Shown in pieces: positions 23,755 to 48,606 of a stretch of 64,000 nucleotides of DNA. The notes under the pieces are model-generated. The model made no database searches. It was not told where the DNA came from and worked only from the letters and a program-made list of their open reading frames with translations. The DNA comes from a virus. Taxonomy: Duplodnaviria > Heunggongvirae > Uroviricota > Caudoviricetes. The position numbers and the translations under genes were made by a program. The DNA is taken from IMG/VR virus record IMGVR_UViG_3300036945_000745. The stretch is one strand, 5' to 3'. Position 1 is the first letter of the stretch; every line of letters starts with the position of its first letter.

Positions 23755-23768
23755 CAAATATACGGAAA
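23755..23768 (-). promoter_or_regulatory. promoter for initiator tRNA-fMet
   Basis: TATATTTG -7 box about 40 nt upstream of the tRNA 5' end. Confidence 0.45.
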
Positions 23769-23806
23769 AAAATAAAAAATACAAAATAATTTTTACTTTT
23801 TTTTTG

Positions 23807-32821: not shown

Positions 32822-32837
32822 TACTTTTAATTTTATT

Positions 32838-33691: not shown

Positions 33692-35104
33692 TTAAAGCAC
33701 CATTCTACTTCCTATTAAGAAGTTACTTAGAAATTGAGAATTAGGTGTCGTATTTCCACTTAGTTTATAATTGAAACTGAATCCAAATCTTCTACTTATT
33801 TTATAATCAAATGATGCACCTAATAAGAAACCCATATGTCTATTTACAGTTGACATTCCGGTTACACTATTCCAACCAATTGGTGCAAACATTGTAAATA
33901 TTTGTGGAGATATTGTTAGCTTTTTAGAATACTGATATGGTTTAGTCCAAAATGCTACCATTGATGATGACATATTGTAATCATATTTAGTATCGGATGA
34001 TTTTAAGAATAAATTAATTACTGCCAAATTATAGCCAAATACACCTCTCTTTGGAGTAGGCTTAATCCAAGTGTAACCCAATAAATTCATATAATTACCA
34101 TTCAGATATGCAAATGCGGATGAATATGAATGTATGGCATTTAGTTTACCTTCTGAAAAGTCCATTTGAGTATATCCACCACTTACTATGAATGTTTTCA
34201 AATCACTCATAATAACAGCATTTGCCGAATAACTTTCATCTCCAGCCATTGATGATTTAGATACCCCAATTGTTGCTGATTGTAAAAATCTACCATCGGG
34301 TGATTCTATTGTAGATAAGTCGGATGATAATAGCATTGGATTAGCTACCACTGCTTTTTCTTTTTTCTTTTCTTCCTTCTTCTCCTCTTTCTTTTCTTCT
34401 TTTTTCTCTTCAGATTTGCTTTCCTCTTTCTTTTCTTCTTTTGATTCAGATTTAGCTTCTTCTTTCTTTTCTTCACTCTTACTTTCAGATTTACTTTCTG
34501 ATTTTGATTCGGATTTGGATTCAGTTTTAGCTTCAGTCTTTGCTTCGGTTTTGCTTTCCGAAGATGATGATGAGCTAGAAGATGAACTACTATTCGATGA
34601 TGAGGATGATGATGAACTATTACTCGCCGGTGGCGGGGATGATGCCGGCGGAGGTGTTGTTGGCGGTGGTGTTGATGCGGCTGAACTCGCAGCTGCTGAA
34701 CTAGCTGAACTACTTGCTGCCGAACTAGCCGATGATGATGCCGCTGAACTAGCTGCAGATGATGCCGCTGTTGCTGCCGCATTACTAGCGGCTGTTGCTG
34801 CCGCATTTGCTACCGCTTGTTGTACAATTGGATTATTTATTACGGGACAAGTTAATGATTCGTATGTAGCCTTTGTTGTTATTAACCAAGTTTGTACTAT
34901 ACCCGTCTGAACTTCTAATGGAGAAAATACTCGTGTTTGATTATAAAAGGATACAGTTGCATATCCATTAATCATTGTAGTTGTAGCTATTTTAGTTTCA
35001 CCTGTACACTTATCTACGAAAGTTTGTGTATAGGTTTGCCCATTCGCATTTTCAGCAAATAATGTAGTAACAATTATCGTTAAAAATACTAGCCATTTAT
35101 TCAT
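33692..35104 (-). CDS. secreted repeat protein: Ser/Ala and SESK/EEKK low-complexity arrays plus a C-terminal beta-barrel-like domain paralogous to 40345..41112
   Basis: Signal peptide MNKWLVFLTIIVTTLFAENANGQ. Poly-(SSAA), PPPTTPPPASSPPPAS, (SESK)n and (EEKK)n runs. C-terminal ...GASFDYKISRRFGFSFNYKLSGNTTPNSQFLSNFLIGSRMVL. Confidence 0.5.
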   Translation of the reverse strand: MNKWLVFLTIIVTTLFAENANGQTYTQTFVDKCTGETKIATTTMINGYATVSFYNQTRVFSPLEVQTGIVQTWLITTKATYESLTCPVINNPIVQQAVANAAATAASNAAATAASSAASSAASSSASSAASSSASSAAASSAASTPPPTTPPPASSPPPASNSSSSSSSSNSSSSSSSSSSSESKTEAKTEAKTESKSESKSESKSESKSEEKKEEAKSESKEEKKEESKSEEKKEEKKEEKKEEKKKEKAVVANPMLLSSDLSTIESPDGRFLQSATIGVSKSSMAGDESYSANAVIMSDLKTFIVSGGYTQMDFSEGKLNAIHSYSSAFAYLNGNYMNLLGYTWIKPTPKRGVFGYNLAVINLFLKSSDTKYDYNMSSSMVAFWTKPYQYSKKLTISPQIFTMFAPIGWNSVTGMSTVNRHMGFLLGASFDYKISRRFGFSFNYKLSGNTTPNSQFLSNFLIGSRMVL

Positions 35105-35312: not shown

Positions 35313-36128
35313 TTATTCAATCTCCGATAATTTAAATTGTATTTTTGGAATATATTCAGTTGGTAACATATTAACATATCCGATAAATTCTGAAAATTCT
35401 TTATCAAATCTATAATGCATATACAATTTATCTAAATTAACTAAAATTTGTCCGGTTGTAAATATATCATATTCACTCTTTCTTCTGTATGGATTTAGAA
35501 AATTATTAGTAGTATATTGAGTTGATAACGTATTTAGAGCATCATTTACCTTTTCCACTTTTTCCAATTCTCGTTTAGAAATATCCAATCTACTTATTGA
35601 TGATTTCTTCTTTATACCATTACGATATCCTGCTTCTGGATGGAATATTCCGTGATTGGTTCTAACTATTAATTCGGATTTGTTTAATTCCTTTACAAAT
35701 GGTTGATGTTTACGAGTTCCTTCATATACATATTTTTTTTCCGAATTAGCTATAATAGTAATTCCTTTTAATCCATCATGTAATTTGTTTTTGGAAGTAT
35801 AGTTAGTTAAGTAACTCAATGTATCATCGATGTTTTTGATTGTCAATGCATGTCTTATCTTTACACCATCATTTGATATTGTATTTTTTCTTTTTTTAAC
35901 AACAACGCCTTCCGTTTCATCTTGCGCCACCATCAAAGTTGCATTGGTTATTCCAATACCAAATTCATTTAATCCTTCAGACCAGTCGGTGCCGGTATCA
36001 TGCATATAAAGAACTTCAACACCATCTCGTATCTCGTGAACTACTCTAACAAATGCTTTATACTTTCTATCTCTATTTTTAATTAAAACGGATTCATTCT
36101 CTAAATATAGAGATGCTATTACACACAT
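35313..36128 (-). CDS. Ntn-hydrolase-like protein (N-terminal Cys nucleophile)
   Basis: Begins MCVIASLY...NRDRK, as in choloylglycine-hydrolase/C59-type amidases; weak. Confidence 0.35.
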   Translation of the reverse strand: MCVIASLYLENESVLIKNRDRKYKAFVRVVHEIRDGVEVLYMHDTGTDWSEGLNEFGIGITNATLMVAQDETEGVVVKKRKNTISNDGVKIRHALTIKNIDDTLSYLTNYTSKNKLHDGLKGITIIANSEKKYVYEGTRKHQPFVKELNKSELIVRTNHGIFHPEAGYRNGIKKKSSISRLDISKRELEKVEKVNDALNTLSTQYTTNNFLNPYRRKSEYDIFTTGQILVNLDKLYMHYRFDKEFSEFIGYVNMLPTEYIPKIQFKLSEIE

Positions 36129-36134
36129 TATTTT

Positions 36135-36914
36135 TTATTTTTTATATAAACTAATTTTACTATCGGAATCAATTAAAATAGAACTCATATTCTCTACCCA
36201 ATCCCCACTATTAAGATATCTCTTACCATTAATCATTCTATCGGATGGTTGGTGAATATGTCCACAAATTACACCATTGCATCCTTTTTTGGTTGCCATC
36301 GATAACGCAGTTACTTCAAAATCATTTACATAATTAGTTGCAACCTTAACACTTTCCTTAATCTTTTGGGATATAGATATATATGGCAATTTTCGCCATT
36401 TACGATAAGTATTATAAATTCTATTTAACCACAATGCGAAATCGTATCCTACTGAACCTATTTTCGATAGCCATTTGTATTTTGTTATAAAAACATCAAT
36501 AACATCTCCGTGGAAAATATAGTAACTCTCCATAGTATTATCGATATCCAACTTATAATCTTCTCTAATTTCAATTGCTCCCAAATGGGTGCCAATGAAT
36601 TCTTGTATAAACTCATCGTGATTTCCTCTTATCCAGATGATTTTGGTTTTCTTTGATAATTTTAATAATTTGGATATAACTTTTGTATGTTGTTTTTTCC
36701 ATTTAGTTCCTCTACTCAAAGCCCATCCATCTACAATATCTCCATTTAGAATTAGTAAATCAGTTGGATGTGAATCTAAGAATTCAATAAACTCTTCTGC
36801 TTTAGAATCTTTAGTTCCTAAATGTAAATCGGATACGATTATTGTTTGATATTTCATATCCAATAATTTTGATGGTTTTTGAAGAAGTCTGTGTTGTTTC
36901 GGTTGATGTAGCAT
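36135..36914 (-). CDS. LpxH-like calcineurin-type phosphoesterase
   Basis: IIVSDLHLG, LNGDIVDGW, RGNHDEF and IFHGD motifs. Confidence 0.55.
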   Translation of the reverse strand: MLHQPKQHRLLQKPSKLLDMKYQTIIVSDLHLGTKDSKAEEFIEFLDSHPTDLLILNGDIVDGWALSRGTKWKKQHTKVISKLLKLSKKTKIIWIRGNHDEFIQEFIGTHLGAIEIREDYKLDIDNTMESYYIFHGDVIDVFITKYKWLSKIGSVGYDFALWLNRIYNTYRKWRKLPYISISQKIKESVKVATNYVNDFEVTALSMATKKGCNGVICGHIHQPSDRMINGKRYLNSGDWVENMSSILIDSDSKISLYKK

Positions 36915-37549
36915 TTGATACTTAATATAAACATATAAAAAAATCCTTTATTCTTAAATCTTCTCGCAGATGTCCATACGCCGTTTGTTTTGTGTATTTT
37001 CATTACCTCTGCTTTTTGTGATACCCAATAATCTTCTGCAAATAAATGTGTTTCATCATAACCACCTGCTTTCCAATATGATTCAGTTTTCCACAATTGA
37101 AATCCACCAACTGCAAATGGAGTTCCTACCCAATTACTCATCCGTTGTTGAATATCGAATAATCTGAATATCCAATTGAATCCCTTTTCGGTTTGGAATG
37201 GAACAGTCGCCAAATCCGTATCATATGATAAACAATCACCTAATAAGAATCTATCTTCTAACATTATATCCGCATCTAAAAAAAGAATATAAGGAGTGGT
37301 TACTAATTTACTACCATCCAATCTAGCCTTCGCAGGAAATCCACCTTCTATTATTTGAATATCTAATTTATTTCTAAAATGTAATTGAGTTTTATACAAC
37401 CATTTTAAACTTTCAGCTGTATCCGAAGTGTCTGCTATAATAACTTTAGTTTCATTTATACCAATTTGTTTGGCTATAAGTGAAATACATTTATAAATGT
37501 TATCCTCTTCATTTTTGCAAGGAATAACGATAGTTATTTTTTCTTTCAT
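36854..37549 (-). CDS. family-2 glycosyltransferase
   Basis: ITIVIPCKNEEDNI ... ILFLDADIML (DxD). Confidence 0.6.
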   Translation of the reverse strand: MKEKITIVIPCKNEEDNIYKCISLIAKQIGINETKVIIADTSDTAESLKWLYKTQLHFRNKLDIQIIEGGFPAKARLDGSKLVTTPYILFLDADIMLEDRFLLGDCLSYDTDLATVPFQTEKGFNWIFRLFDIQQRMSNWVGTPFAVGGFQLWKTESYWKAGGYDETHLFAEDYWVSQKAEVMKIHKTNGVWTSARRFKNKGFFYMFILSIKCYINRNNTDFFKNHQNYWI

Positions 37550-37611: not shown

Positions 37612-38334
37612 TTATTTTTCAAATATTTGCTTATCAATCATTCTTTTTAAAATTCTAGCACATGCGATATCTAATGCTTTTTTAGTTGCTATACTAATAG
37701 TTGATTGATTGAATTTAATTGGGTCTATTGTAGCATCTGATAATAAGGTTAATTGTCTGTTTGTAGTTGCTTCACCCAAACCACTTGCACCAAATACTAC
37801 GCCGGTTTCTGCATTTGTGAAACGAACCTGTAATCCCAAACGAGTTACCATATTATCTTTAATACCATCTTTTAAATTGATTGATTCATCTTCTGATATG
37901 GAATAATCATATACTTCGATAGCAACAAAATACTCTGCTAAATTAATTTTACCACGACCATCCAATTTGTTTTCGGAAATTCCAGCTTGCGATGCTTGGA
38001 ATTGCTTTACCATACGATTTTTGATTTCCGTTTTATCTTCTGTGAATTTGAATCGATTGAGATTTTCTAAATATTCCATTGTAATATTCGCAACCCCCAA
38101 TCCTACTCTCTTTTCTTTCAATTCGGGATACATTTCATATACCTCATCCGATATGCCACATTTTAATATTTGAATTGGTATTTGCTTACCACTATAATCC
38201 AAATATTGCTCAATATCAATAGCACGTTCGAATGATGCTTTATATTGTTCGGTTTGCGTTTTTCCTATTGTTTGTGCAACAACCACATTGCTGCTTAATA
38301 AAAAGAAACTTAATAATACTAATAAATTTTTCAT
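37612..38334 (-). CDS. CsgG/HfaB-like secreted protein
   Basis: Signal peptide; RVGLGVANITMEYLENLNRFKFTED and later VAIEVYD...LGLQVRFTNAETGVVFGASGLGEAT resemble the CsgG core. Confidence 0.4.
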   Translation of the reverse strand: MKNLLVLLSFFLLSSNVVVAQTIGKTQTEQYKASFERAIDIEQYLDYSGKQIPIQILKCGISDEVYEMYPELKEKRVGLGVANITMEYLENLNRFKFTEDKTEIKNRMVKQFQASQAGISENKLDGRGKINLAEYFVAIEVYDYSISEDESINLKDGIKDNMVTRLGLQVRFTNAETGVVFGASGLGEATTNRQLTLLSDATIDPIKFNQSTISIATKKALDIACARILKRMIDKQIFEK

Positions 38335-38357: not shown

Positions 38358-38382
38358 TAAAAAAAGGGAGAATAAATCTCCC
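38358..38382 (-). terminator. bidirectional hairpin terminator
   Basis: GGGAG-AUAAAU-CUCCC flanked by an A-run and a T-run. Confidence 0.45.
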
Positions 38383-38391
38383 TTTTAATTA

Positions 38392-38646
38392 TTATCCTAA
38401 TTCATCTTCTTTAGGTTCTTTTTTAGCCGTAAACTTATCTAATGTATCAGCTCCCATTCCGATTGCTGTTATTACCATTACCGCGTTTACTAATTCTGCT
38501 GATGGTTTGATATCACCATGTGAGAAAGAGTTTACTAACATAGTTCCACAAAGGAATAATGCTCCGAAGAATGCAATTACAGGTTTTACTGATATTGCTC
38601 CTCTCTCATCTTTGAATAAATCAATTACCCATTCTTTAAATGTCAT
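38392..38646 (-). CDS. small membrane protein
   Basis: 84 aa, two TM helices. Confidence 0.45.
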   Translation of the reverse strand: MTFKEWVIDLFKDERGAISVKPVIAFFGALFLCGTMLVNSFSHGDIKPSAELVNAVMVITAIGMGADTLDKFTAKKEPKEDELG

Positions 38647-38684: not shown

Positions 38685-39290
38685 TTATCCTACCATTTCG
38701 GCATCATCATCTCTGATTTTACCACATTTCAAACACTCTTCTTCACCATCGCCATCTAAATCACCCCAAACGTGTTCACATTGTCTATGGTCAAAATATT
38801 CATCAATATCACCATCGCCATCGGTATCAATACCATCCATTATACCATCACCATCTTCATCAATTTCAATTCCTTTTTTCTCTTCTTTTGGTAGTGATAC
38901 TACGGATTCTTCACTATTTTTAAACTCCGAATTTGGTAATACTAATGGTTTTATATCCATTGGAACTATTGGATTGTTTGGCATATCGGCAGTATTACTG
39001 ATTGATGTACCATCTTCCTCATCCATTTTTTGAACTAACATTTTATCCTTATCAGTATCACTAAACCAATAGTCAATGATTTTACCATAAGAACCAATGA
39101 AAGCTCCTAATAATAGCAAAAGAAGTTCTTTCCATTCTCCTGCTATTTCATTTTTATTAATAATAGCGGCAAACATACCACCGATTATTAACATAAATCC
39201 ACCCAATACTAACGCAGTGATGTACCATCTACGTTTCATCATAGCATTTAGTAATTGTTTGAATCCATCCGGCGTTTGTTGATTATTCAT
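38685..39290 (-). CDS. membrane protein with Asp-rich calcium-binding-like tail
   Basis: TM helix; IDEDGDGIMDGIDTDGDGDIDEYF...GDLDGDGEEECLKCG. Confidence 0.45.
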   Translation of the reverse strand: MNNQQTPDGFKQLLNAMMKRRWYITALVLGGFMLIIGGMFAAIINKNEIAGEWKELLLLLLGAFIGSYGKIIDYWFSDTDKDKMLVQKMDEEDGTSISNTADMPNNPIVPMDIKPLVLPNSEFKNSEESVVSLPKEEKKGIEIDEDGDGIMDGIDTDGDGDIDEYFDHRQCEHVWGDLDGDGEEECLKCGKIRDDDAEMVG

Positions 39291-39296: not shown

Positions 39297-39617
39297 TTAC
39301 CATTTAGGTGCTTCTTCTTTAAACTCATCACCTTCCTTTTTCTTAGGCTTAGGTGCGGGCGCAGGTTGAGTGTTTCCGCCTACTGCTTTCTCTTTAATGA
39401 TTACAGTCTTACCACCTGCCGATTGTTGTTGAGCTTGTTGGTTAGAGTTTGTAATATTAATAACCGGTGCCGCTTGTACTGCTGCTGGCTTTTCTTCTTC
39501 ACCACCCGTCAATTTATTTGTAATGAAACCACCTACACCCAATGTGATAGTACTCACTAAACCAATAAGGATACTTTTAATCGAAGTACCACCCTTTTCT
39601 TCTTGTTCTTCTGCCAT
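39297..39617 (-). CDS. membrane-anchored Ala/Gln/Pro-rich protein
   Basis: TM helix followed by low-complexity sequence. Confidence 0.4.
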   Translation of the reverse strand: MAEEQEEKGGTSIKSILIGLVSTITLGVGGFITNKLTGGEEEKPAAVQAAPVINITNSNQQAQQQSAGGKTVIIKEKAVGGNTQPAPAPKPKKKEGDEFKEEAPKW

Positions 39618-39630: not shown

Positions 39631-40002
39631 TTATAATTTATTAAAATCTGTTATTCCTAATTCGTTACCAACTGAATCATACAATCCAATTCTATATGCC
39701 GATGATGGTAATGCTGATGTATATACTTTTAAAATATTATCACCTGCTTTTACATTTACCACTTCCTTTGATATTACTTTGTTTGCGATATCAAATATCT
39801 TAATAGTTGCCGTTTGAGCAACTTCACTTTTAACATTCATAGCAACTTCTGATGTTACAAATGCTGTTTCTAATTTGATACCAACTTTATTTGCAATTTG
39901 CAATTCAGTCTTAATTTGTTGTGCCGGTTCAATGAATACATCATCTTTTGTACATCCTACAAATCCAATGATTATCAATCCTAATGTAATTACTTTTTTC
40001 AT
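39631..40002 (-). CDS. small lipoprotein with T9SS-CTD-like beta-sandwich tail
   Basis: Lipobox GFVGC; tail KIFDIANKVISKEVVNVKAGDNILKVYTSALPSSAYRIGLYDSVGNE. Confidence 0.4.
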   Translation of the reverse strand: MKKVITLGLIIIGFVGCTKDDVFIEPAQQIKTELQIANKVGIKLETAFVTSEVAMNVKSEVAQTATIKIFDIANKVISKEVVNVKAGDNILKVYTSALPSSAYRIGLYDSVGNELGITDFNKL

Positions 40003-40003
40003 T

Positions 40004-40345
40004 TTATTTTATTATTATTACTGTTTTTGCTATTTCTTTTTTAGTAACATCTTCTAATAACAGATATAAATATGTAGATTGTATTGATTTCGTATAAATC
40101 TTTTTTACATTTTCACCACGCTGTCCAATAAACCTTTCTCTACTGATTACTTGTCCACTTTCTTTATCAATTAAAGTTAAAGTATATGTTCCTGCTGATG
40201 GTAAATCGAAATGAATAGATTGACCATTTTCTACTTTACTTTCAGTTACATTGAATATCTTTTCAATTGGCATAGTTGGTGTTGGTAAATCTGGTTTACT
40301 ACATCCTACCAATAAAATCAACGATATCAATATTATTTTTTTCAT
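40004..40345 (-). CDS. small lipoprotein with T9SS-CTD-like tail ending in Lys
   Basis: Lipobox LLVGC; GTYTLTLIDKESGQVISRERF...TYLYLLLED...TVIIIK. Confidence 0.4.
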   Translation of the reverse strand: MKKIILISLILLVGCSKPDLPTPTMPIEKIFNVTESKVENGQSIHFDLPSAGTYTLTLIDKESGQVISRERFIGQRGENVKKIYTKSIQSTYLYLLLEDVTKKEIAKTVIIIK

Positions 40346-41112
40346 TAGAAATTAAATTTATTTCCTATGGATATATTATTCATCAATCCAAACTTAGGGT
40401 TAGTATTTATGTTTCCTCTATAAGCAACTAATAAAATAAATCTTTTTGAAATCTTATATCCAAACGAAGTTCCTACTAATGCGTTAAATGTTGGGTCTAT
40501 TGTTTTATTACTTAATCCCAAATCCCAATACATATGCGAATAACTTAAAAGTAAGTCGGGAGTAATTGTAAATCTACCATTTTCATATGTTCTATTAAGA
40601 AATATCATAGCCGATGGTGCACCTGTGTGCATTGGTGGTAAACTATCAGTTATTTGGCTGAAAGTATTCGATAAATTAATACCAAATCCTTTATTCCACT
40701 TTCCTTTATATAACTTTACATAAGTTAATGTTGTTGTTCTATTTGTGCTTATTTCGGTAAATGAAAGGAATAGGTTATTATTGCCTTTACTTACAAATGC
40801 CGATACTCCATATTGAGAGCCATCCGTTGTAAGAAAACCATTACCACCATACGAATAAACACCATTTAACGATTGTCTACCACCCCCTAATGAAAGGGCT
40901 TTTAACCATCCACCTACATAAGTTGGTTTTTGCAAAAATACAAAATCAGATGATGTTAGGAATGCATTTGTCTTAACTATTGAACCTTTTTGACCAGATG
41001 GCGGTGGAGGTGGTTGCAAATTATTTACCTGCATTTGCATTTCCCTATTCTTTGCATCTTGTGAGAATACAAAAATAGGAAATAATAACAATATTAATAT
41101 TATCTTTTTCAT
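40345..41112 (-). CDS. predicted outer-membrane beta-barrel protein (PorP/SprF-like?)
   Basis: Signal peptide; alternating beta-strand pattern; C-terminal ...GTSFGYKISKRFILLVAYRGNINTNPKFGLMNNISIGNKFNF ends in Phe and is homologous to the tail of 33692..35104. Confidence 0.5.
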   Translation of the reverse strand: MKKIILILLLFPIFVFSQDAKNREMQMQVNNLQPPPPPSGQKGSIVKTNAFLTSSDFVFLQKPTYVGGWLKALSLGGGRQSLNGVYSYGGNGFLTTDGSQYGVSAFVSKGNNNLFLSFTEISTNRTTTLTYVKLYKGKWNKGFGINLSNTFSQITDSLPPMHTGAPSAMIFLNRTYENGRFTITPDLLLSYSHMYWDLGLSNKTIDPTFNALVGTSFGYKISKRFILLVAYRGNINTNPKFGLMNNISIGNKFNF

Positions 41113-43418
41113 TAATTTACCTTTACTTTTAATTGTATTCCACTCTTACTTACTGCATCGGTATTTGAAACTGAAGTCAATCCTAATGTACTACTCAATC
41201 CCATTAAAGGTAAGAATGTTATTTTATATTCGGTTGTTTTATCTAATGTAGTTGAGCCATCTGTTATTAATGAACCCAATGTTATGTATGTATTTCTATC
41301 AGTTCCAAAATTGATAGGTGTTCCCTTTGTAGTGAATTCTACCTTTTCAAATTTTAGAGCGGTATTATCATAGTTTAAATTAAATTGAGTTCCTACCAAT
41401 TCTTGCTGTAATGGGTCTACTGAAATAGTTACTATCAATTTACCACCAACATTTTCACCCATTAGATATGCGTTGATTTGATTAGAAACCGATTGAGTTG
41501 ATAAACTCATAGTTCTATATGAATTGGTAGCAATACTACTTTGTGTTTGTTTTGCTGAATGTGATAAATTCACATCACCCACCCAAGTTACATTTACATT
41601 ATATGTGTTATTTAATACTCCACTATTCAAATTAAATGGATATAAACTTCTAGTTGCGTTAAATTGAGTATTCCAATTTGATTTTGTTATAGCATCGTAT
41701 TCGGTTTTACCATACAGTTTCATCAAATAGGTTAATGCTGAATATTGTGTTAGTGGTGCGGCTCCCGTCAAATGTTGTAATAATTTGTATGTATCTGCTT
41801 CATTAAATATACCATTACCATCTACATCAGCGTTCATATATTGAATACCCGATGTAAACTCATTTCCACTTTCATTTCCAAATAATCCACCCAATGATAA
41901 TTCTTTAAATGCCAAATAAACATCCGATACTCCAACTATATTGCTATAAAGAGTATTCAAATCGGTTTGATTGGTATATGATAAATCAATACCATGCTGT
42001 TTGTAAGATTGTATTGGTGAAAATGTAAAATTTGTACCGGCAGTTACCGCAAACCCATCCCCCATATTTCTTATTGAACTTTGATAAGTACTATTTGCTA
42101 TTTGTGTTGTTAAGTTAGTTGATATTAAATACGTTTTCCACCAACCATTTACATTATATACTTGCATCCCACCTTCGTATATATCTAAAAATTTAACGGA
42201 TGTTATGTTTGCAAATGCGGGTGATGATGAATTAAAAACCCTTTCATCTATTTGTAATCTATGTCCTCCCAAATTAGCATCGTAATTAGATATTATTAAA
42301 GATTCCCAATTGGATGCTCCAATTATAATTTTGTAATTACCTGTTTGCGTTTTAGCAGTATCTAAATCGTTTGTTAAATCAACTTTACCCAATCCACTTA
42401 TTGTTCTTGATGTATTGGTTATTGTACCCCATACATTATTTACATATGAGTTTGCTTTTGCTGAAAATTTTGTTTCATCCACATTACCACCAAAGTCAAA
42501 ATTGAATCTTGCGGTTAAAACTTCTCCATTTGAGTGAGTTACCGAATTAGTGTAAAATTCCGTAAAGGTTGCATCATCAGGATTAGACCAAGTTCCATAT
42601 TCAATTACATAAGGACAATTAAAATGATTGGGTAAATCATTCCATTGTGTCCCATTCCACTTTGTTACTGCATAATCTTCATTACCACTATTGTTTGGTT
42701 CGCCACCTGCCCAGTTATTATATTGACCAGGGATATTTCCGTTTGTTTGTCCGTTGTTGATTTTAATTAAAGTTCCTTTTTCAGGACCAGCATCAATTAC
42801 CCATCTGGCTTCACTCGCTTCATCGGTTAACGCAAACCATATTTGAGATTGGGGAACATTATTATAAATAAAAGCATCTTCATCAGCCGAAGTAATTGTT
42901 ACCAAATATCCCGTTTGTCCTTTGAATGTTGTTAATTCAGATGCTGCTCTTGCGTTCGTATAAGTTGTACCCGTTGATATTGGTTTATAAAAGTGTCCGT
43001 TCACACCATTGTAGAAATATCCCGCGGGATTGACTGTTGCTGCTACCGATAATGCCACATTACCTTTTATTGAACCTGTGTTTATTTTTAGAGATGCTAA
43101 TGCTGTATTAACATCAGCCATAGTTCCCATTACTACTAAACGAGTTTTATTACCCGTTAGAGTAAATCCACTTGCTGCAATTAAACCTCTTGTTTCATTT
43201 AAATAAAATGTTGTACCAGATGGTGGATTTACTAAACTTATTGATGTTAATAAAGTTGATGTTGTACTAAACCCACTCAATACAAATCCACTAGCATCTT
43301 GTCCGGTTGTGGATGGTATAAACGATTTAGAGTCCGGCGCAGATACACTCTGACCGAACCCTAAAAATGATGTTAATAGAAATAATAATGTAACTATTAA
43401 ATTTTTCATATTATTCAA
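41112..43418 (-). CDS. large secreted protein with C-type lectin domain (EPN type)
   Basis: Signal peptide MNNMKNLIVTLLFLLTSFLGFGQ. CTLD signature WFALTDEASEARWV...YNNWAGGEPNNSGNEDYAVTKWNGTQWNDLPNHFNCPYVIEY. Confidence 0.7.
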   Translation of the reverse strand: MNNMKNLIVTLLFLLTSFLGFGQSVSAPDSKSFIPSTTGQDASGFVLSGFSTTSTLLTSISLVNPPSGTTFYLNETRGLIAASGFTLTGNKTRLVVMGTMADVNTALASLKINTGSIKGNVALSVAATVNPAGYFYNGVNGHFYKPISTGTTYTNARAASELTTFKGQTGYLVTITSADEDAFIYNNVPQSQIWFALTDEASEARWVIDAGPEKGTLIKINNGQTNGNIPGQYNNWAGGEPNNSGNEDYAVTKWNGTQWNDLPNHFNCPYVIEYGTWSNPDDATFTEFYTNSVTHSNGEVLTARFNFDFGGNVDETKFSAKANSYVNNVWGTITNTSRTISGLGKVDLTNDLDTAKTQTGNYKIIIGASNWESLIISNYDANLGGHRLQIDERVFNSSSPAFANITSVKFLDIYEGGMQVYNVNGWWKTYLISTNLTTQIANSTYQSSIRNMGDGFAVTAGTNFTFSPIQSYKQHGIDLSYTNQTDLNTLYSNIVGVSDVYLAFKELSLGGLFGNESGNEFTSGIQYMNADVDGNGIFNEADTYKLLQHLTGAAPLTQYSALTYLMKLYGKTEYDAITKSNWNTQFNATRSLYPFNLNSGVLNNTYNVNVTWVGDVNLSHSAKQTQSSIATNSYRTMSLSTQSVSNQINAYLMGENVGGKLIVTISVDPLQQELVGTQFNLNYDNTALKFEKVEFTTKGTPINFGTDRNTYITLGSLITDGSTTLDKTTEYKITFLPLMGLSSTLGLTSVSNTDAVSKSGIQLKVKVN

Positions 43419-45078
43419 CTATTAGGTCAATTTTATTACCTTTTGAATCTACTGCATCTGATAATACAAAGTAGAATAATCCCGCAGTATTTGTTAAAGT
43501 TGTCTTTGGTGTAAATATTAATTTATATGGAGTTCCTACTTTAATTCTTGCAGTTTTTAATTGGTCAATCGAACCAAATGTCAATCTACCATTATTATGT
43601 GTAGAGAAATTTGTAATCGTAGAGCCAGAATCAAATATCACATTATCCAAAGTTAATTTAGATTCATCATAATTCATAATAACTTGCAAACCTGCTAATT
43701 CAGCTTTTGTCAAAGTTGTAGTTAATATTACTTTACCACCTTCTAAGGTAGATGCAATACCCAATGTTGCTTTTTCAGCTGCCAAAGTTTGATAAGCCAT
43801 TGGAGCGGTACTCATAGATTTAATTGAACTAGTAGCTTTATCACTTAGCGAATTTGTATATTGTCCCGCAGTTATCTTAGTAGCAATTACTGCCGGGTCC
43901 GATGAATGTGACCAGTTCAAATCACCACCCCAAGCAAATACTGCATAAACTTCTTTTATAGGAGTATCGATTAATACTCTATTCTTTACAACTCCATCTA
44001 ACCAACTTTGATTTAATAAACCACTATACCATCTTACTGATGTTGATGTTGGTGTTGGAATCATTGCATTTGAATCCATATTTTGCCCCATTACGTGTGC
44101 AAATAATGCGTATGAATCTCCTTCACCGAATGCGTTCATATTGTTAGTAACTTTACCAACTTTCTTTTCCAATGCAGGTAAAGTAAAGAAGTTTGAAGTT
44201 CCACTAATATCAGTTTGTGAGTGTCCTAAGAATGCTTTATATGCATCGGATACTGTCACAATGTTATTCATCCAACTCTTTTGAAATGCTGCTCCTACGA
44301 ATACACCAACCGAATCACCAACTTTAATTTGTGTTGTGAAAAGAGCTTCACCACTTGCATCCAATGGTAATTGAGCAATTGGGGCTTGTGTCCAATCAAT
44401 ATTACCACTACCATCCGATTTCAATTTCATCAATTGAACACTATGGTCAGTAATAGTGTATCCTTCTGGATATAATACTTTTACTTTGAATTGAGATGTG
44501 TTACCCGTTACACCCGTTATAGATGATGAGCCACCCCCATATATAGTTCCAACGTTTGCACCATCGGTATCGGTACCAGTTGCTAAATCTATTTTGAATA
44601 TATTTGAATAAGTATTTTGGTCTTTTAAGATATATTTTTGAGTAGCAATTACACCACTAATAGATGCGTCTGCTCTCTGAACAGTTAATTGTCCAACATT
44701 CCAATCTGCGTTTGCAGTATAAGCCCAAGGAGTCAATCCATATTGAACATCTAAATCATTATCACCACCTCTACTATTGAAAGTAAACTTATAGTTACTC
44801 CAACCCGTATAAAATGTTTGTGCGGATGTTCCTTGATTAAACGTAGTAGATACATACGCCAATGATTTATTACTATACTGATATCTAAACCAAAGGTAAC
44901 GTGGATTTTTAATTACTTGTCCTTTTGATAAAGTATATTTGACTGTAATTGTATCACCAACTTTCAACCCCGTTGAGGGTGTCAACGATTGACTGATTGT
45001 TAATTGTCCATAAGATGATAGAGATATTAGAAGTATCCCTAAAAATGCGATTAGTTTTTTCATTTTATTTTTCCTCAA
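43411..45078 (-). CDS. large secreted protein, C-terminal domain homologous to 41112..43418
   Basis: Signal peptide MRKNKMKKLIAFLGILLISLSSYGQ. C-terminal QVIMNYDESKLTLDNVIFDSGSTITNF...RLTFGS matches QFNLNYDNTALKFEKVEFTTKGTPINF...ITLGS. Confidence 0.55.
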   Translation of the reverse strand: MRKNKMKKLIAFLGILLISLSSYGQLTISQSLTPSTGLKVGDTITVKYTLSKGQVIKNPRYLWFRYQYSNKSLAYVSTTFNQGTSAQTFYTGWSNYKFTFNSRGGDNDLDVQYGLTPWAYTANADWNVGQLTVQRADASISGVIATQKYILKDQNTYSNIFKIDLATGTDTDGANVGTIYGGGSSSITGVTGNTSQFKVKVLYPEGYTITDHSVQLMKLKSDGSGNIDWTQAPIAQLPLDASGEALFTTQIKVGDSVGVFVGAAFQKSWMNNIVTVSDAYKAFLGHSQTDISGTSNFFTLPALEKKVGKVTNNMNAFGEGDSYALFAHVMGQNMDSNAMIPTPTSTSVRWYSGLLNQSWLDGVVKNRVLIDTPIKEVYAVFAWGGDLNWSHSSDPAVIATKITAGQYTNSLSDKATSSIKSMSTAPMAYQTLAAEKATLGIASTLEGGKVILTTTLTKAELAGLQVIMNYDESKLTLDNVIFDSGSTITNFSTHNNGRLTFGSIDQLKTARIKVGTPYKLIFTPKTTLTNTAGLFYFVLSDAVDSKGNKIDLIVE

Positions 45079-45727
45079 GTATTTTGGTTATAAGTTTTTC
45101 AGAAGCTTTCTTTAAAGCATTACTTAAAGATGTTTGGTTAAACTTACCACCTTCATCTACTATGAGAGTTGACATAGAAATTTCTGATGATGATTCTTCA
45201 ACCATAACCTCTTTTGTCTTTTTACCATCTTTATAAAGGATACCCTTCATTCGGATGACAACTTCTTCTTCATTTTTGTGAAATACGGAAACGTTTTTCT
45301 TTGTTGTTAAAACGTCCAAATACACGATTTGTACTTGTAATTTATTTGATGCGGATGACGTTAAATTGTATCCCTTTTCTTGTATGAATTCTTCTAATAC
45401 ATTTTTAACACCAAATTCCAATTGTCTGTTTCCAGCCAATTTTCCAATTTTAACATTATTTGTTACAGATTCAACCCAAATATGTTCATCGGCATTATAC
45501 ATAATATTGCCTGGAGTATTTTTGTATGTACCATCAAATTTTTGATTGAATGCGTCTGTTGCCTTTTGTATTAATTCATTTTTATCCAAAAAATGTAAAA
45601 CTACAAAAGTAATTTGTGTAATTAGTGCTAACGTTATGAACGCTGCTACCGAATAAACAAAAAACCCTAATAACTTTTCTTTTAACTTTTCTACAAAGTT
45701 TACTGAATAAACATCTTGTGTGACCAT
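45065..45727 (-). CDS. membrane-anchored hypothetical protein
   Basis: N-terminal TM helix. Confidence 0.5.
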   Translation of the reverse strand: MVTQDVYSVNFVEKLKEKLLGFFVYSVAAFITLALITQITFVVLHFLDKNELIQKATDAFNQKFDGTYKNTPGNIMYNADEHIWVESVTNNVKIGKLAGNRQLEFGVKNVLEEFIQEKGYNLTSSASNKLQVQIVYLDVLTTKKNVSVFHKNEEEVVIRMKGILYKDGKKTKEVMVEESSSEISMSTLIVDEGGKFNQTSLSNALKKASEKLITKILEEK

Positions 45728-46200: not shown

Positions 46201-47424
46201 TTAATTACTTAGTGGTGCTTTTATAGGTGAGTGTGATTGATAATTTTCAATTTGGAAATCGGAAATTTCAAATCCTTTTAAATTTGTTTTTAATGGTCCA
46301 ATTCCACATTCACCACCTTCGGTTTGCCAGAATTCAGTATTAATGTTCAATTTGGGCAATTTGAAAGGTTCTCTCGTTGAATATGGTATTTTATATGAAT
46401 CGTAATACTCACTCATCCCACCACCAAACGGCATTAATTCATCAACAGCTTTATTGTAATTTTCTTTACCCATTGATTGCTTTAATAATTCAACTCGTTC
46501 TTCATTGGTGTACTTTCTTCCAATTTGTTCTTTTGCTTGCTCAATATGATTTGAATATAAATGAGTATCGCCTAAGTTACCAATTAATTCATCGGGTATC
46601 ATATCTACTTCATTTGCTATAATGTGAAGTAGTAATCCATATGAAGCAATATTAAAAGGTAATCCTAAAAATGTATCTACACTTCGTTGATTCCACATTA
46701 GAGAAATTGCTCTTTTAGGTATATTTTCTTCATCTAAATCTTTGTTGGTAATCTTTTCTAAAAATCTTTCAACTTTTTTACCTTGCATAAATAAATTAAC
46801 TCTTTCGCCTATACTCAACTCTCTTGTATATAATTGGAATCCATAGTGGCAAGGTGGTAATACCATTTGGTTTAACTCTGCTACATTCCAAGCCGATACC
46901 ATTAATCTTCTACTATCGGGATTTGTTTTAAGTTCTTTTACCAAATCATCTATTTGGTCAGTTCCTCTACCATTCCAATTTCTCCACTGCGCACCATAAA
47001 TTGGTCCTAATTCTCCCCATTGTTTTGCAAATTCAGGAACTGTCTTAATTAGATTTTCAAACTCCTTAACATCAGGATATGATTTTTCTAATTGTTCGGG
47101 AGTCATTTTATCACTCCATTCCTTTTTATGCGCTTCAACATATCTTTTGTAAGCATCACCAGTCCAAATGTGGCAATCATTATCAACTAAATACTTAATA
47201 TTAGTATCTCCTCGTAAAAACCATAGCAATTCGGTTACAATTGATTTCCATGCCATTTTCTTTGTAGTAAGTAATGGAAACCCTTCGCTCATTTTATGGC
47301 GAATTTGTCTACCAAATACTGAAGTTGTTCCGGTACCGGTTCTATCCTCTTTCTTTACTCCATTATCCAAAATATCTTGCAATAAGTTCTGATATTTCTC
47401 ATCTAATGTATTCATAAATCCCAT
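46201..47424 (-). CDS. thyA: thymidylate synthase (ThyA family) with internal insertions
   Basis: DRTGTGT; catalytic MVLPPCHYGFQLY; FLGLPFNIASYGLLLHIIA (Asn-type specificity loop); GDTHLYSNH. Confidence 0.9.
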   Translation of the reverse strand: MGFMNTLDEKYQNLLQDILDNGVKKEDRTGTGTTSVFGRQIRHKMSEGFPLLTTKKMAWKSIVTELLWFLRGDTNIKYLVDNDCHIWTGDAYKRYVEAHKKEWSDKMTPEQLEKSYPDVKEFENLIKTVPEFAKQWGELGPIYGAQWRNWNGRGTDQIDDLVKELKTNPDSRRLMVSAWNVAELNQMVLPPCHYGFQLYTRELSIGERVNLFMQGKKVERFLEKITNKDLDEENIPKRAISLMWNQRSVDTFLGLPFNIASYGLLLHIIANEVDMIPDELIGNLGDTHLYSNHIEQAKEQIGRKYTNEERVELLKQSMGKENYNKAVDELMPFGGGMSEYYDSYKIPYSTREPFKLPKLNINTEFWQTEGGECGIGPLKTNLKGFEISDFQIENYQSHSPIKAPLSN

Positions 47425-47499
47425 TTACTTTTCTTTTTTCTTTTAAATCTATCCAATATCAATTCTATTAAGAACGAAATTATCTTTAACATATATTAT

Positions 47500-47676
47500 T
47501 CATCTCGCTTCATTAATAGGTTATGGATTGGTGTCCAAATACAATATACACCTATTGCTTCCAAAAAGTTTAATTTTGGGAAATTTGGAACTATTTGTGT
47601 AACATATGATAATGCCAATCCAATTACACAGGTTACGATTGTAACGTTAGTGACTAATTTTAGTTTTTCGTTCATT
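47500..47676 (-). CDS. small single-TM protein directly downstream of the endolysin (holin candidate; 59 aa, below the ORF-track cut-off)
   Basis: Manual translation MNEKLKLVTNVTIVTCVIGLALSYVTQIV...; position only. Confidence 0.3.
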
Positions 47677-47728: not shown

Positions 47729-47756
47729 ATAAAAAAGGGAAAACTTTCGTTCTCCC
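47729..47756 (-). terminator. terminator after the endolysin gene (hairpin is also T-flanked on the plus strand)
   Basis: GGGAAAAC-UUUC-GUUCUCCC with A/T runs on both sides. Confidence 0.45.
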
Positions 47757-47763
47757 TTTTCTT

Positions 47764-48606
47764 TTATGCTAATAAATGATAATATTCTTTAAAGTGTTTA
47801 ATTCTATCGGCTAATCCGATAGTTCCACCATTTACTCTTTTTGTGATTGATGTTACTGCCGTATCACTTGCCCCACCATCTGCTAATTTGTTTAATCCGT
47901 TTTTTGACCAGAACCAAGCTGCCGATGCTAATGCGTATTTAGATGATACCAAATCTGGGTTAGATGGAATATCTACTCCAATTGCTTTACCAAATTGAGT
48001 GTAATTATCTCTACCTGTCAATTGGATATATCCTCTTCCTCTGAATTTATAGCCATCTCCACTTGCTTCAGAACCATTAGCCATACGATTTGCATAAACT
48101 TTGTTTGCAATCTTTTGTGGTTGTCTAGCATATGGAGTTGCTGCTGCTTCCGTTGGGAAATATTTCTTAAATATACCATTCAATCCTTTTGCTGAATAGT
48201 TTAAGTTTTCTTGCGTTACTCTGAATCCACCGCTTTCGTGTCCACATTGTGCTAAAAAGTGTGCTACTCTCAATGGAGTATTAATTCCAAATTTAGAAGC
48301 AACTTCTGGTATTGAATCGATTACAACTTGAGGAACGTGTCCTTTAAGTTTATCTAATTTTAATCCTGCAACTTGTGGCGCCGGAGTTGTAGCTATTGGT
48401 TGTGGCGTTGGTGTAGTTGAACCTACATTCATAACCTTTGCCCAAGTTCCATCACCTACTATACCATCTGCTGTTAATCCATGTTTTGATTGAAAAGCTT
48501 TCACAGCTTCTTCGGTTTTTGGACCAAAGTTACCAATTGGCTCTATTCCTAATTTTGTTTGTAATAATTTAACGTTTTCGTTGTTGTCACCTTTTTTAAG
48601 TAGCAT
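47764..48606 (-). CDS. endolysin: PG_binding_1 domain plus GH19 muramidase/chitinase-like domain
   Basis: N-terminal LLQTKLGIEPIGNFGPKTEEAVKAFQSKHGLTADGIVG; GH19 signatures AQCGHESGGF and YKFRGRGYIQLTGRDNY. Confidence 0.8.
   Translation of the reverse strand: MLLKKGDNNENVKLLQTKLGIEPIGNFGPKTEEAVKAFQSKHGLTADGIVGDGTWAKVMNVGSTTPTPQPIATTPAPQVAGLKLDKLKGHVPQVVIDSIPEVASKFGINTPLRVAHFLAQCGHESGGFRVTQENLNYSAKGLNGIFKKYFPTEAAATPYARQPQKIANKVYANRMANGSEASGDGYKFRGRGYIQLTGRDNYTQFGKAIGVDIPSNPDLVSSKYALASAAWFWSKNGLNKLADGGASDTAVTSITKRVNGGTIGLADRIKHFKEYYHLLA

Follow-up and report, generated by a model that had tools for sequence, protein, structure and literature searches.

The moron envelope proteins of phages, such as Lom and Bor of lambda, Llp of T5 and Cor, include outer-membrane barrels and lipoproteins that the infected cell produces, often for superinfection exclusion or receptor masking. 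In cellulosomes, dockerins are found on modular exported enzymes with variable functional heads, while anchoring scaffoldins present cohesins at the cell surface through SLH or sortase signals. In the SprB-SprF and PG1035-PorP pairs, the gene directly upstream of the outer-membrane barrel gene encodes a large exported adhesin-like protein, the PorP/SprF barrels being of the 14-stranded FadL type with a cysteine tail (PMC9143113, PMC12635249). Phage-encoded T9SS cargo also has a precedent, in 'Cryophage' (PMC7468147).

The window, meaning the whole 64,000-nt stretch that was analysed, belongs to an uncultivated jumbo phage with a Bacteroidota host, probably of the Flavobacteriia, and contains 25 tRNAs and a tmRNA, an endolysin and an RNA ligase. 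The region of interest forms the variable core within a conserved operon running from g220 to g84 (45727 to 38392, minus strand), and all six genes examined there are genuine, closely packed ORFs. We give an even chance to the explanation that it encodes a cohesin/dockerin lectin display module aimed at the host envelope, ancestrally linked to the T9SS, whose C-terminal domain (CTD) has split off as a lipoprotein. The features are as follows.

45065 to 45727, minus strand: g220, first gene of the operon, an N-terminal TM anchor and a domain distantly paralogous to g240.
43411 to 45063, minus strand: g550, predicted Sec-exported protein with a variable N-terminal part, a degenerate dockerin-like segment and a C-terminal cohesin (about 43414 to 43758).
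41112 to 43409, minus strand: g765, predicted Sec-exported C-type lectin protein with a dockerin-like segment and a cohesin domain.
42594 to 43001, minus strand: C-type lectin domain (CTLD) in g765, with a complete Ca/sugar-site motif, EPN...E...WND.
41760 to 41942, minus strand: dockerin-like loop-helix pair of g765, with the canonical loop DVDGNGIFNEAD.
41115 to 41462, minus strand: cohesin domain (PF00963) at the extreme C-terminus of g765.
40345 to 41112, minus strand: g255, a signal peptide, a conserved N-terminal peptide with PPPPP linker and a predicted 12-stranded barrel ending in Phe.
40004 to 40345, minus strand: g113, lipoprotein (lipobox LLVGC, C-S-K-P-D), its mature part a CTD-like beta-sandwich ending ...TVIIIK.
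39631 to 40002, minus strand: g123, lipoprotein (C-T-K-D-D-V), its mature part a putative remote homolog of the T9SS type-A CTD.
39297 to 39617, minus strand: g106, small bitopic membrane protein with the conserved C-terminus ...KKKEGDEFKEEAPKW.
38685 to 39290, minus strand: g201, at least one strong N-terminal TM segment and an acidic, DGDGD-rich, Cys-containing C-terminal tail.
38392 to 38646, minus strand: g84, small membrane protein, last gene ahead of a terminator-like hairpin.
37612 to 38334, minus strand: g240, exported and highly conserved, with terminator-like hairpins on both flanks; marker gene of the module.
33692 to 35104, minus strand: g470, barrel paralog with a signal peptide, a two-Cys domain of about 65 aa, a linker and the barrel at residues 255-470.
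32838 to 33437, minus strand: Endonuclease_NS nuclease (PF01223, E 4e-18) with a signal peptide ...GFGQ, adjoining the g470 barrel.

From g220/g550 through g113/g123, start and stop codons overlap or lie a few bases apart, and the following gaps measure 13 nt (g123-g106), 6 nt (g106-g201) and 38 nt (g201-g84). The sole strong terminator-like hairpin of the operon (10 pairs) lies 3′ of g84, at 38362-38386, and two weak hairpin matches (6-7 pairs) fall within g201, around 39165-39183. The TM segment of g220 spans residues ~17-48 in a hydropathy scan; the protein is weakly YajG/Lipoprotein_16-like (PF03923, E 1.4e-4, under the cut-off), can be aligned with the g240 family and is retained by related loci as the 5′ edge of the cassette. 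On its 3′ side the variable cassette has a constant limit in g106 (TM ~13-35), which is found in almost all related loci and has gp016 of the cultured Flavobacterium phage immuto as a homolog. In g201, which is 50-82% identical across related loci, the scan scores residues ~22-46 as hydrophobic, and another possible segment was read from the sequence by eye, unscored. One relative, L009, encodes a g84 homolog of 45% identity and a g240 that is a lipoprotein; g240 is 78-91% identical over 80 IMG/VR loci and 53% identical to immuto gp017.

The large proteins likely start at ATG 45063 (g550, 550 aa) and ATG 43409 (g765, 765 aa), which replace the upstream TTG starts used previously. Signal peptides were judged by eye and with a crude script, and a K/R n-region, a hydrophobic core and a Gln at +1 are found in g550 (...SSYGQ, cleavage-site residues YGQ), g765 (GFGQ), g255 (FSQ), g240 (VAQ), g470 (NGQ) and the nuclease (GFGQ). 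This pattern is consistent with the Bacteroidetes Q-rule, a Gln at +1 after the signal peptide (PMC5837995). GFG/Q is retained in 108 of 120 g765 homologs. The observation of Sec signal peptides on both large proteins holds. No signal for outer-membrane crossing was recognisable in g550 or g765, hence both may remain periplasmic.

The CTLD of g765 scores 23.3 bits against Pfam Lectin_C (cut-off 22.6) and matches mannose-binding protein and mincle in the PDB, with the alignment covering EPN...WND. EPN is kept in about all of the 120 homologs and WND in 118, in agreement with the canonical CTLD described initially. Residues 266-550 of g550 are homologous to residues 490-765 of g765 (E 3e-15); the C-terminal homology noticed earlier is thus real but covers about 280-300 aa and not about 90. 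The shared region of about 280 aa comprises a dockerin-like Ca loop followed by a cohesin domain in the last ~115 aa. The C-terminal 140 aa of g765 match PF00963 at 25.4 bits (cut-off 24.1), with the scaffoldin cohesin 4UMS as top PDB match (E 0.023), and PF00963 was detected in 8 out of 8 C-terminal fragments scanned. A cohesin occupies the extreme C-terminus in 99 of 101 related proteins. Relatives keep the C-terminal module and vary in their N-terminal parts. A type-B CTD, the candidate put forward for the shared domain, is accordingly ruled out, and with no HMM support for such a CTD the large proteins do not qualify as type-B cargo. The dockerin-like loop of g765 is kept in 118/120 homologs and can be aligned with segments at the C-termini of immuto gp013, immuto gp014 and the L009 lectin (DVNNDSRFTVSD etc.); because the segment has no Pfam Dockerin match, the dockerin call is based on motif and alignment.

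The lipobox Cys is invariant across 29 aligned sequences, confirming that the two small proteins are lipoproteins. They are paralogous (E 1e-6), g113 belonging to an HMM-found family of 108 lipoproteins. In Bacteroidota, C-X-K-(D/E)2-X directs lipoproteins to the surface (PMC5080379); the x-K-(D/E)2 motif follows the Cys in 26/26 members of the g123 family, and the C-T-K-D-D-V of g123 is, by its sequence, a perfect export signal of this type. Within the window, the PF18962 match has an E of 0.096 (family best 2e-3), with sub-threshold matches in 26/26 members, all of which also match DUF3244 below threshold with slightly higher scores. Neither TIGR04183 nor TIGR04131/CHU_C matched any window protein, lipoproteins included, and a scan of the C-termini of 74 window ORFs gave no bona fide CTD. 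Over its full length, the profile of the lipoprotein family can be aligned with the CTD of immuto gp015 (hhalign E 2.1e-4, a value for the whole family, of which g123 is a member, and not for g123 alone), and among 1899 ORFs this CTD used as a query retrieves little besides these lipoproteins. The PNP motif that CTDs carry in their N-terminal strand is missing from the lipoproteins. The sub-threshold matches and the profile alignment support a remote relationship with the T9SS type-A CTD. The type-A pattern reported in the lipoprotein tails holds to that extent, but stays under every curated threshold, and the proteins cannot be described as CTD-bearing cargo since the CTD-like domain is the entire mature protein, with no passenger, behind a lipoprotein signal peptide.

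Fold prediction models g255 (255 aa) as a 12-stranded outer-membrane beta-barrel, nearest to the autotransporter, NanC and FapF barrels, in line with the signal-peptide beta-barrel ending in Phe first suggested. Its assignment as PorP/SprF-like fails, as the protein has neither cysteines nor a C-tail, the prediction gives 12 strands, and the PorP/SprF HMM matched no window protein, none of 13 barrel family members and no related barrel. The paralog g470, with its low-complexity A/S/P/KE linker of ~170 aa, is organized like a type Va autotransporter: signal peptide, N-terminal domain, long linker, C-terminal barrel. The window barrels differ from autotransporters, NanC, KdgM, Tsx and FapF in resembling no Pfam barrel family in sequence, in the N-terminal extension of g255, only ~50 residues, and in their restriction to this phage lineage (23 representatives among 1.84 billion proteins). 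The g255 type is rare (244 vs 3682 clusters at 90% identity), many relatives dispense with it, and it is not essential, since it is missing from the 636-kb relative L004; in about 20 loci its slot is filled by a 297-aa relative, and it is an accessory member of the cassette. Most related loci have a g470 ortholog downstream of g240, and g470 is also matched by immuto gp018.

The architecture was compared in 51 related phage loci with a complete interval. One cohesin-terminated protein with one lipoprotein was found in 16, two of each in 12, two of each with a barrel between them in 22, and a lone cohesin-terminated protein in 1, so that both numbers are equal (1:1 or 2:2) in 50/51 loci. The linkage of lectin, barrel and lipoprotein genes pointed out for the window therefore recurs across related phages. 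In L043, the sole lipoprotein-free locus, a CTD-like tail (FPNP...VYDFDG...GSYFVSL...KKLLIL), identified from the PNP motif and from weak similarity in hhalign and not by an HMM, is fused after the cohesin. Similarly, immuto encodes a lectin with a dockerin-like segment (gp013), a second protein with such a segment (gp014) and a cohesin followed by a T9SS type-A CTD (gp015; PF18962 34.6 bits, TIGR04183 44.8 bits). Some relatives add a TonB-dependent-receptor-like gene.

Like cellulosome components, the window proteins combine a cohesin that exceeds the Pfam cut-off with a dockerin-like Ca-loop/helix pair and variable heads on modular exported proteins, and immuto follows the logic of anchoring scaffoldins, with the cohesin on a separate protein that bears a surface-anchoring signal. 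However, the module is phage-encoded in a Bacteroidota host, its heads are lectins or unknown domains and not enzymes, cohesin and dockerin-like parts share one polypeptide, and anchoring would be of the T9SS CTD or lipoprotein type. Type-A cargo, including that of 'Cryophage', shares the host phylum and Sec signal peptides, but the CTD-like domain of the window stands alone as a lipoprotein instead of forming a C-terminal tag, and the large proteins end in a cohesin. Compared with moron barrels and lipoproteins, the cassette is multi-gene and modular, has lectin/cohesin proteins in strict stoichiometry and resides in a lytic-type jumbo phage.

Several other explanations were weighed. The proposal of g765 and g550 as type-B cargo of the T9SS, held by a PorP/SprF-like g255 dedicated to them, with the lipoproteins as type-A cargo, draws on the cargo-beside-barrel gene order, which recurs in relatives, on the genuine CTD in immuto and on the remotely CTD-like lipoproteins; its specifics are nonetheless refuted by the HMM nulls, the 12-strand prediction, the missing Cys tail, the cohesin C-terminus and the CTD-like domain without a passenger, and we hold it to be highly improbable. 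Unlikely, but deserving more credit, is a split signal, in which the CTD-like lipoprotein would bind its cohesin-terminated partner in the periplasm for recognition by the T9SS in trans, or act as a decoy blocking the system. The fused arrangement in L043 and gp015, the 50 split loci with matched numbers and the distant homology, in register up to the C-terminus, with a verified CTD speak for it. Among the known phage-resistance loci of Flavobacterium are T9SS and gliding proteins, which would make T9SS interference a plausible aim, and under this explanation the host T9SS would remain a requirement or a target of the module. On the other hand, known T9SS substrates include no lipoprotein and none acting in trans, the PNP motif is lacking, scores lie under curated cut-offs, and the g123 export signal provides a T9SS-independent route to the surface.

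It is quite unlikely that the secreted nuclease, the glycan-binding proteins and Tsx/KdgM/NanC-like barrels harvest nucleotides or sugars for replication in a Sus-like manner. The barrel-nuclease adjacency, also present in L006 and L009, the nuclease of the immuto module, the added TonB-dependent-receptor-like gene and a nearby ThyA would fit, but the long linker and N-terminal domain of g470 are atypical of a plain porin, the lectin has no catalytic domain and the cohesin:lipoprotein stoichiometry is left unexplained. A Bacteroidota-type lysis system, in which the cassette with g106, g201 and g84 disrupts the outer membrane in a spanin- or holin-like way, is very unlikely. An endolysin lies 2.7 kb upstream, the placement of lipoproteins beside a bitopic membrane protein recalls the layout of o-spanin and i-spanin, and a PHROG spanin match covers the signal peptide only. 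The endolysin-like gene that L036 and L013 carry between the lipoprotein and the g106 homolog is a hint of a lysis connection. Against this, lectin/cohesin proteins of 550-765 aa and barrels are without precedent in lysis, lipoprotein copy number follows the cohesin proteins and not g106, and the lipoproteins are beta-sandwich domains and not short Pro-rich o-spanins. Finally, tail fibres or receptor-binding proteins with uncleaved hydrophobic N-termini would agree with the CTLD and Ig-like folds common in such proteins, a weak match of g550 to the TP901-1 baseplate protein BppU (E 0.01) and the variable N-terminal parts, but this has an extremely low probability given the conserved Q-rule signal peptides, the operon shared with a barrel and lipoproteins, the non-structural neighbours (ThyA, cupin, glycosyltransferase, nuclease) and the secretion CTD on a homolog. 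The earlier view of exported host-envelope proteins, as opposed to virion components, is supported. Overall, the sequence observations of the original prediction were confirmed in part and its interpretation is partly supported.

In the cohesin/dockerin lectin display that we favour, the operon products would reach the host envelope through host pathways. Export of g550 and g765 across the inner membrane would use Sec and signal peptidase I, and each protein presents a variable N-terminal binding part (in g765 a putative Ca-dependent EPN-type C-type lectin), a conserved dockerin-like segment and a terminal cohesin. BAM would insert g255 into the outer membrane as a 12-stranded barrel, and g123 may use the Bacteroidota lipoprotein surface-export signal. 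Each cohesin-terminated protein would have one cognate small lipoprotein, g113 or g123, whose mature part may be a detached descendant of the type-A CTD; the two would pair physically. The lipoproteins, with the barrel where present, would tether the large proteins at the outer membrane, presumably at the surface rather than in the periplasm, and a small cellulosome-like lectin display may thus have replaced an ancestral state in which the cohesin protein was itself T9SS cargo. The biological role would be receptor masking, adhesion or scavenging. Most likely, the module redecorates the envelope of the infected cell, and masking or binding of surface glycans would probably serve superinfection exclusion, keep progeny off debris or alter adhesion.

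The window comes from a large phage that has not been cultivated. Every gene in it lies on the minus strand, GC content is about 32% and the exported proteins cluster at 32.8-45.7 kb. The six ORFs at the centre of this analysis are genuine and nearly abutting, and from g220/g550 through g113/g123 start and stop codons overlap or lie a few bases apart. The genes most concerned here are the following.

43411..45063, minus strand: g550, large exported protein with a predicted C-terminal cohesin
41112..43409, minus strand: g765, large exported protein with a predicted C-type lectin domain and C-terminal cohesin
40345..41112, minus strand: g255, predicted barrel
40004..40345, minus strand: g113, small lipoprotein
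39631..40002, minus strand: g123, small lipoprotein
37612..38334, minus strand: g240, module marker
33692-35104, minus strand: g470, second member of the barrel family, with a signal peptide, a two-Cys domain, a low-complexity stretch (A/S/P/KE) of ~170 residues and a barrel

Further downstream, the intergenic gaps are 13 nt (g123-g106), 6 nt (g106-g201) and 38 nt (g201-g84). Terminator-like hairpins on the coding strand are located 3' of the endolysin gene, 3' of g84 and 3' of g240, hence g220 to g84 probably form one transcription unit, with g240 separate.

The likely start of g550 is the ATG at 45063, giving MKKLIAFLGILLISLSSYGQ..., and that of g765 the ATG at 43409, giving MKNLIVTLLFLLTSFLGFGQ.... 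By sequence, a Gln follows every SPI-type signal of the region (g550, g765, g255, g240, g470 and the nuclease), and GFG|Q is kept in 108 of 120 g765 homologs, in support of the signal peptides originally predicted on the large proteins. Gln at +1 is the Q-rule of Bacteroidetes (PMC5837995), previously noted for Porphyromonas prophages (PMC10367356).

The C-type lectin domain with EPN and WND motifs proposed for g765 was recovered with Lectin_C (PF00059) at 23.3 bits, barely over the gathering score of 22.6. The protein aligns to mannose-binding protein across GEPNN...QWNDxP, and the predicted Ca/sugar-site residues (EPN, the next Glu and WND) are kept in essentially all of 120 close homologs. 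The canonical C-type lectin disulfides are missing, with 0-3 Cys per protein among the g765 homologs. The C-terminal domain that g550 and g765 were thought to share is indeed homologous, but extends over about 280-300 residues (E 3e-15) rather than ~90 aa. Profile matches identify its last ~115 residues as a cohesin domain: all 8 C-terminal fragments taken from the two families match PF00963 (best E 2.9e-7), that of g765 reaching 25.4 bits (cut-off 24.1), and the best PDB match to the C-terminal region is the scaffoldin cohesin 4UMS. Searches of g765 and g550 with Pfam and NCBIfam HMMs gave no match to TIGR04131, CHU_C, TIGR04183 or PF18962. The proposed type-B CTD (TIGR04131 / CHU_C) is thus not supported, the shared C-terminal domain being a cohesin instead. 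Upstream of the cohesin lies a dockerin-like segment with two loop-helix motifs, one having a canonical loop (DVDGNGIFNEAD) and the other a degenerate one; the canonical loop DVDGNG[IV]FNExD is kept in 118 of 120 g765 homologs, and the segment aligns with C-terminal segments of the lectins of phage immuto and of the related locus L009. Because dockerin PF00404 has no Pfam match in the window proteins, the dockerin identity is a motif-level call. Residues ~138-207 of g550 also match weakly (E 0.01-0.02) the baseplate protein ORF48 (BppU) of the lactococcal phage TP901-1, probably by chance or through a shared Ig-like fold.

A homologous module is carried by vB_FspM_immuto, a cultured Flavobacterium phage of 160 kb whose host is Flavobacterium sp. 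LMO8.

Table. Proteins of the immuto module, sequence features and window counterparts.
gp012: signal-peptide Endonuclease_NS; window nuclease 32838-33437, E 2e-47
gp013: signal peptide, Lectin_C (57 bits) and dockerin-like tail; g765 523-607
gp014: signal peptide and dockerin-like tail; no window counterpart
gp015: signal peptide, cohesin (36.7 bits) and full-length T9SS type-A CTD; g765/g550 cohesin and the CTD-like lipoproteins
gp016: small membrane protein; g106
gp017: exported protein; g240, E 5e-74
gp018: two-Cys domain and barrel; g470-like

The gp015 CTD, which served as positive control, scores 34.6 bits with PF18962 and 44.8 bits with TIGR04183 (cut-off 23). Judged from these domains, the lectin of immuto is of the dockerin type, whereas its cohesin belongs to a predicted T9SS-secreted anchor.

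g113 and g123, the two small lipoproteins, are paralogous, and their lipobox Cys is invariant. The optimal surface-export signal of Bacteroidota lipoproteins is C-X-K-(D/E)2-X (PMC5080379). g123 starts C-T-K-D-D-V, with C-x-K-(D/E)(D/E) kept in 26/26 homologs, and by this LES motif it is predicted to be surface-exposed; g113 starts C-S-K-P-D, a partial match. Type-A CTDs have an Ig-like 3+4 beta-sandwich fold (PMC11285876). A CTD-like domain constitutes the entire mature part of the 113-123-aa lipoproteins, and there is no passenger with a signal peptidase I signal. On g123, PF18962 (Por_Secre_tail) reaches 13.4 bits against a cut-off of 27 (best family member E 2e-3), g113 and g123 have no TIGR04183 match, and none of 120 g123 homologs has a precomputed Pfam domain. 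Sub-threshold matches to DUF3244 (best 4e-4) and Por_Secre_tail (best 2e-3), often also to FlgD_ig, recur in 26/26 family members. Since all of these are sub-threshold, the lipoproteins are not T9SS CTDs by curated criteria. The claim that their tails are type-A CTDs therefore fails on both cut-offs and on the missing passenger, although the CTD-like pattern itself recurs below threshold. A 108-member lipoprotein profile aligns with the gp015 CTD end to end and in register to the C-terminus (hhalign E 2.1e-4), and phmmer with the gp015 CTD against 1899 ORFs matches almost exclusively these lipoproteins, in register. These alignments are suggestive of an evolutionary relationship with bona fide CTDs, but DUF3244 scores similarly. 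The lipoprotein profile found nothing in the PDB, and no hidden T9SS CTD turned up when the C-termini of 74 window ORFs were concatenated and scanned with Pfam, an approach that weak matches would escape. Four homologs of 39631-40002 (P0314, P0335, P0339 and P0340) bear the JGI name 'phosphopantetheine adenylyltransferase', which looks like a mis-annotation of 123-aa g123-type lipoproteins.

The relation between cohesin proteins and lipoproteins was surveyed in 80 loci retrieved from IMG/VR with the g240 family. Of 101 cohesin proteins, 99 end in the cohesin; the exceptions are immuto gp015 and a 636-aa protein of locus L043. In the latter, the cohesin is followed by ...KVFPNPSNG...VYDFDGNLIK...GGSYFVSLQSPDGQAVTKKLLIL, a tail that tentatively fits the classic type-A CTD pattern by its PNP, YDxxG and GxYF motifs and by aligning weakly with gp015 in hhalign (E 2.6e-3). 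Architectures were counted in the 51 loci with a complete interval between the g220 and g106 homologs.

Table. Architectures between g220 and g106 homologs (C, cohesin protein; L, lipoprotein).
C-C-barrel-L-L: 22 of 51 loci
C-L: 16 of 51 loci
C-C-L-L: 12 of 51 loci
C alone: 1 of 51 loci (L043, fused CTD-like tail)

By these counts, cohesin proteins and lipoproteins occur 1:1 in 50 of the 51 loci, and the sole locus without a lipoprotein is precisely the one in which the CTD-like tail is fused. This distribution is a Rosetta-stone pattern, which suggests that the lipoprotein corresponds to a cargo CTD that became detached, and that it acts together with the cohesin protein.

The barrel g255 was originally described as PorP/SprF-like. 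It has zero Pfam or NCBIfam matches, with PorP/SprF (PF11751) absent at E<=1; 13 diverse members of its family, distant ones included, match no Pfam barrel family, PorP/SprF included, at E<=10, and related barrels have no PorP-SprF match in NCBIfam. An AF2 model built on a diverse alignment (pLDDT 70-87 for residues 70-255) predicts 11-12 antiparallel strands, in agreement with the beta-barrel originally suspected; it replaces an unusable model from a shallow alignment (pLDDT 42.8). PorP-like proteins are 14-stranded outer-membrane barrels of the FadL family (PMC9143113), whereas g255 has fewer predicted strands. The C-tail of SprF bonds to GldK through a Cys-X-Cys (PMC12635249), and a periplasmic C-tail with this conserved motif is a trait of close SprF homologs (PMC12635249). 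In contrast, g255 has no cysteine and no such tail, ending at the last barrel strand (...IGNKFNF). By HMM searches, predicted strand count and the missing Cys-X-Cys tail, g255 is not PorP/SprF. Only 23 relatives of g255 emerged when 1.84 billion representatives were searched exhaustively with HMMER, and none when 185,579 species genomes were scanned with a barrel profile. True orthologs are rare (244 clusters versus 3682 for g123), with one among the 80 IMG/VR loci, and the gene is missing from the 636-kb relative L004. A third barrel subfamily of 297 aa (hhalign probability 98%) fills the g255 slot in about 20 related loci. g470 resembles autotransporters in its layout and has orthologs in most related loci as well as in immuto (gp018). 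Phage outer-membrane barrels in general are common in annotation, and BFVD holds many phage 'porin' or 'autotransporter' barrels, none of them close to g255 (best E 1.9e-3). With g255, the cassette introduces a new, phage-specific barrel family of the outer membrane, predicted to have 12 strands.

The wider window has two further features of note.

13186-24211, minus strand: 25 tRNA genes in a dense array together with a tmRNA (tag AVELSTMTFEDAMSFVGADYAVAA)
46201-47424, minus strand: ThyA-like ORF, 407 aa

Such an array is a typical jumbo-phage trait, supplementing translation with the phage's own components. Thymidylate synthases are usually well under 407 aa, and the unusual length of the ThyA-like ORF suggests insertions or an extra domain. 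RNA ligase and endolysin are also encoded. Among 50,697 phage records, megablast found no close isolate of the region at the DNA level and tblastn no match to the barrel; among isolates, the lectin, g240 and cohesin genes are common to immuto phages only. Metagenomic contigs of 93 to 636 kb encode identical or near-identical proteins.

A hairpin (47731-47762) directly follows the endolysin gene and is succeeded by a 59-aa ORF (47496-47675) with hydrophobic, possibly membrane-spanning stretches, a holin candidate by sequence. Some related loci have, inside the cassette, an endolysin-like gene of ~200 aa flanked by the lipoprotein gene and the g106 homolog (L036 4729-5331; L013 8103-8702); its C-terminus (...TKRVNGGTIGLxDRIKHFKEYY) matches the window endolysin (47764-48606), which suggests that the cassette is linked to the lysis region. 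Between g240 and g470, positions 35313-37549 contain genes for a GT2 glycosyltransferase and a calcineurin-like phosphoesterase, plus an ORF of 271 aa that weakly resembles C45 acyltransferases. As this slot differs among related loci, its genes may be surface-glycan-modifying cargo. In L007 (1425-5095), L008 and L071, two genes are inserted between the g240 homolog and the g470-type barrel, encoding an 825-aa TonB-dependent-receptor-like protein (CarbopepD_reg_2, Plug and OMP_b-brl_3) and a lipoprotein of ~400 aa. A signal-peptide Endonuclease_NS nuclease, then an S-adenosylmethionine decarboxylase-like gene, occupy 32390-33437; the nuclease/AdoMet_dc pair likewise comes after the barrel in L006, and the nuclease adjoins barrels or lectins in L009 and immuto. 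Two more lipoproteins (1356-2501, with weak FG-GAP repeats, and 4360-4905) have export-signal-like starts, C-Q-K-E-D and C-S-K-E-D respectively, and the ORF at 6087-7010 matches a PHROG 'lipoprotein' family, indicating several further putative surface lipoproteins in the phage. Profile and PDB searches returned nothing usable for g240 and g220, and a CsgG/LpoB-like fold, an impression that these searches did not support, was dropped. PHROG matches to 'spanin', 'Cor' and 'Zot' were rejected, covering only signal peptides or being insignificant.

Domain content, sequence-level targeting signals, the predicted barrel fold, co-variation, the fusion and the verified CTD of immuto form the data on which a function can be proposed. 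In the preferred reading, the lipoproteins, plus the barrel where present, would tether cohesin-terminated lectins at the outer membrane, and the tethered assembly would bind surface glycans, resulting in receptor masking, superinfection exclusion or adhesion. At 550-765 aa, g550 and g765 could stay in the periplasm, be carried along by the lipoprotein, or pass through the T9SS via the CTD-like partner.

The last option borders on a bolder reading, in which a type-A CTD was split from its cargo and reissued as a lipoprotein paired 1:1 with a cohesin lectin. Acting in trans, it would serve as a lipid-anchored adaptor for secretion or attachment, carrying its partner or tethering it at the cell surface; alternatively, it would be a decoy jamming the host T9SS. 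The 1:1 pairing and the L043 fusion fit such a split, the sub-threshold CTD scores count against it, and overall it is unlikely, if worth considering. The secreted nuclease, with the barrels as channels, could instead serve nucleotide or sugar scavenging, which we regard as quite improbable. A role in lysis is very unlikely. That the large proteins are virion fibres, despite their predicted signal peptides, seems highly improbable.

Most elements of the module belong to known kinds, namely phage envelope morons and T9SS cargo, and the split CTD is potentially the new one. A phage-encoded T9SS type-A cargo was already reported in 'Cryophage' (PMC7468147). Neither this phage lineage nor a cohesin/dockerin lectin module in phages is described in the literature searched, and the same holds for the g255 barrel family and for CTD-like domains serving as stoichiometric lipoprotein partners.

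Bacteroidota dominate many aquatic and gut habitats, and phage remodelling of the host surface, well studied in enterobacteria, has barely been studied in this phylum. The module is abundant, the g123-type lipoprotein forming >3600 clusters at 90% identity on contigs of up to 636 kb, and modular, with variable heads on constant dockerin-like and cohesin parts. Its link to the T9SS is testable, as some relatives, a cultured Flavobacterium phage among them, have the CTD fused and most have it detached as a CTD-like lipoprotein. A split CTD, if true, would be an undescribed way for viruses to exploit or undermine type IX secretion. Should the pairing prove real, the module would offer a natural system for studying what the CTD fold recognises, how large proteins get to the Bacteroidota surface, and how jumbo phages exclude competitors or alter host adhesion.
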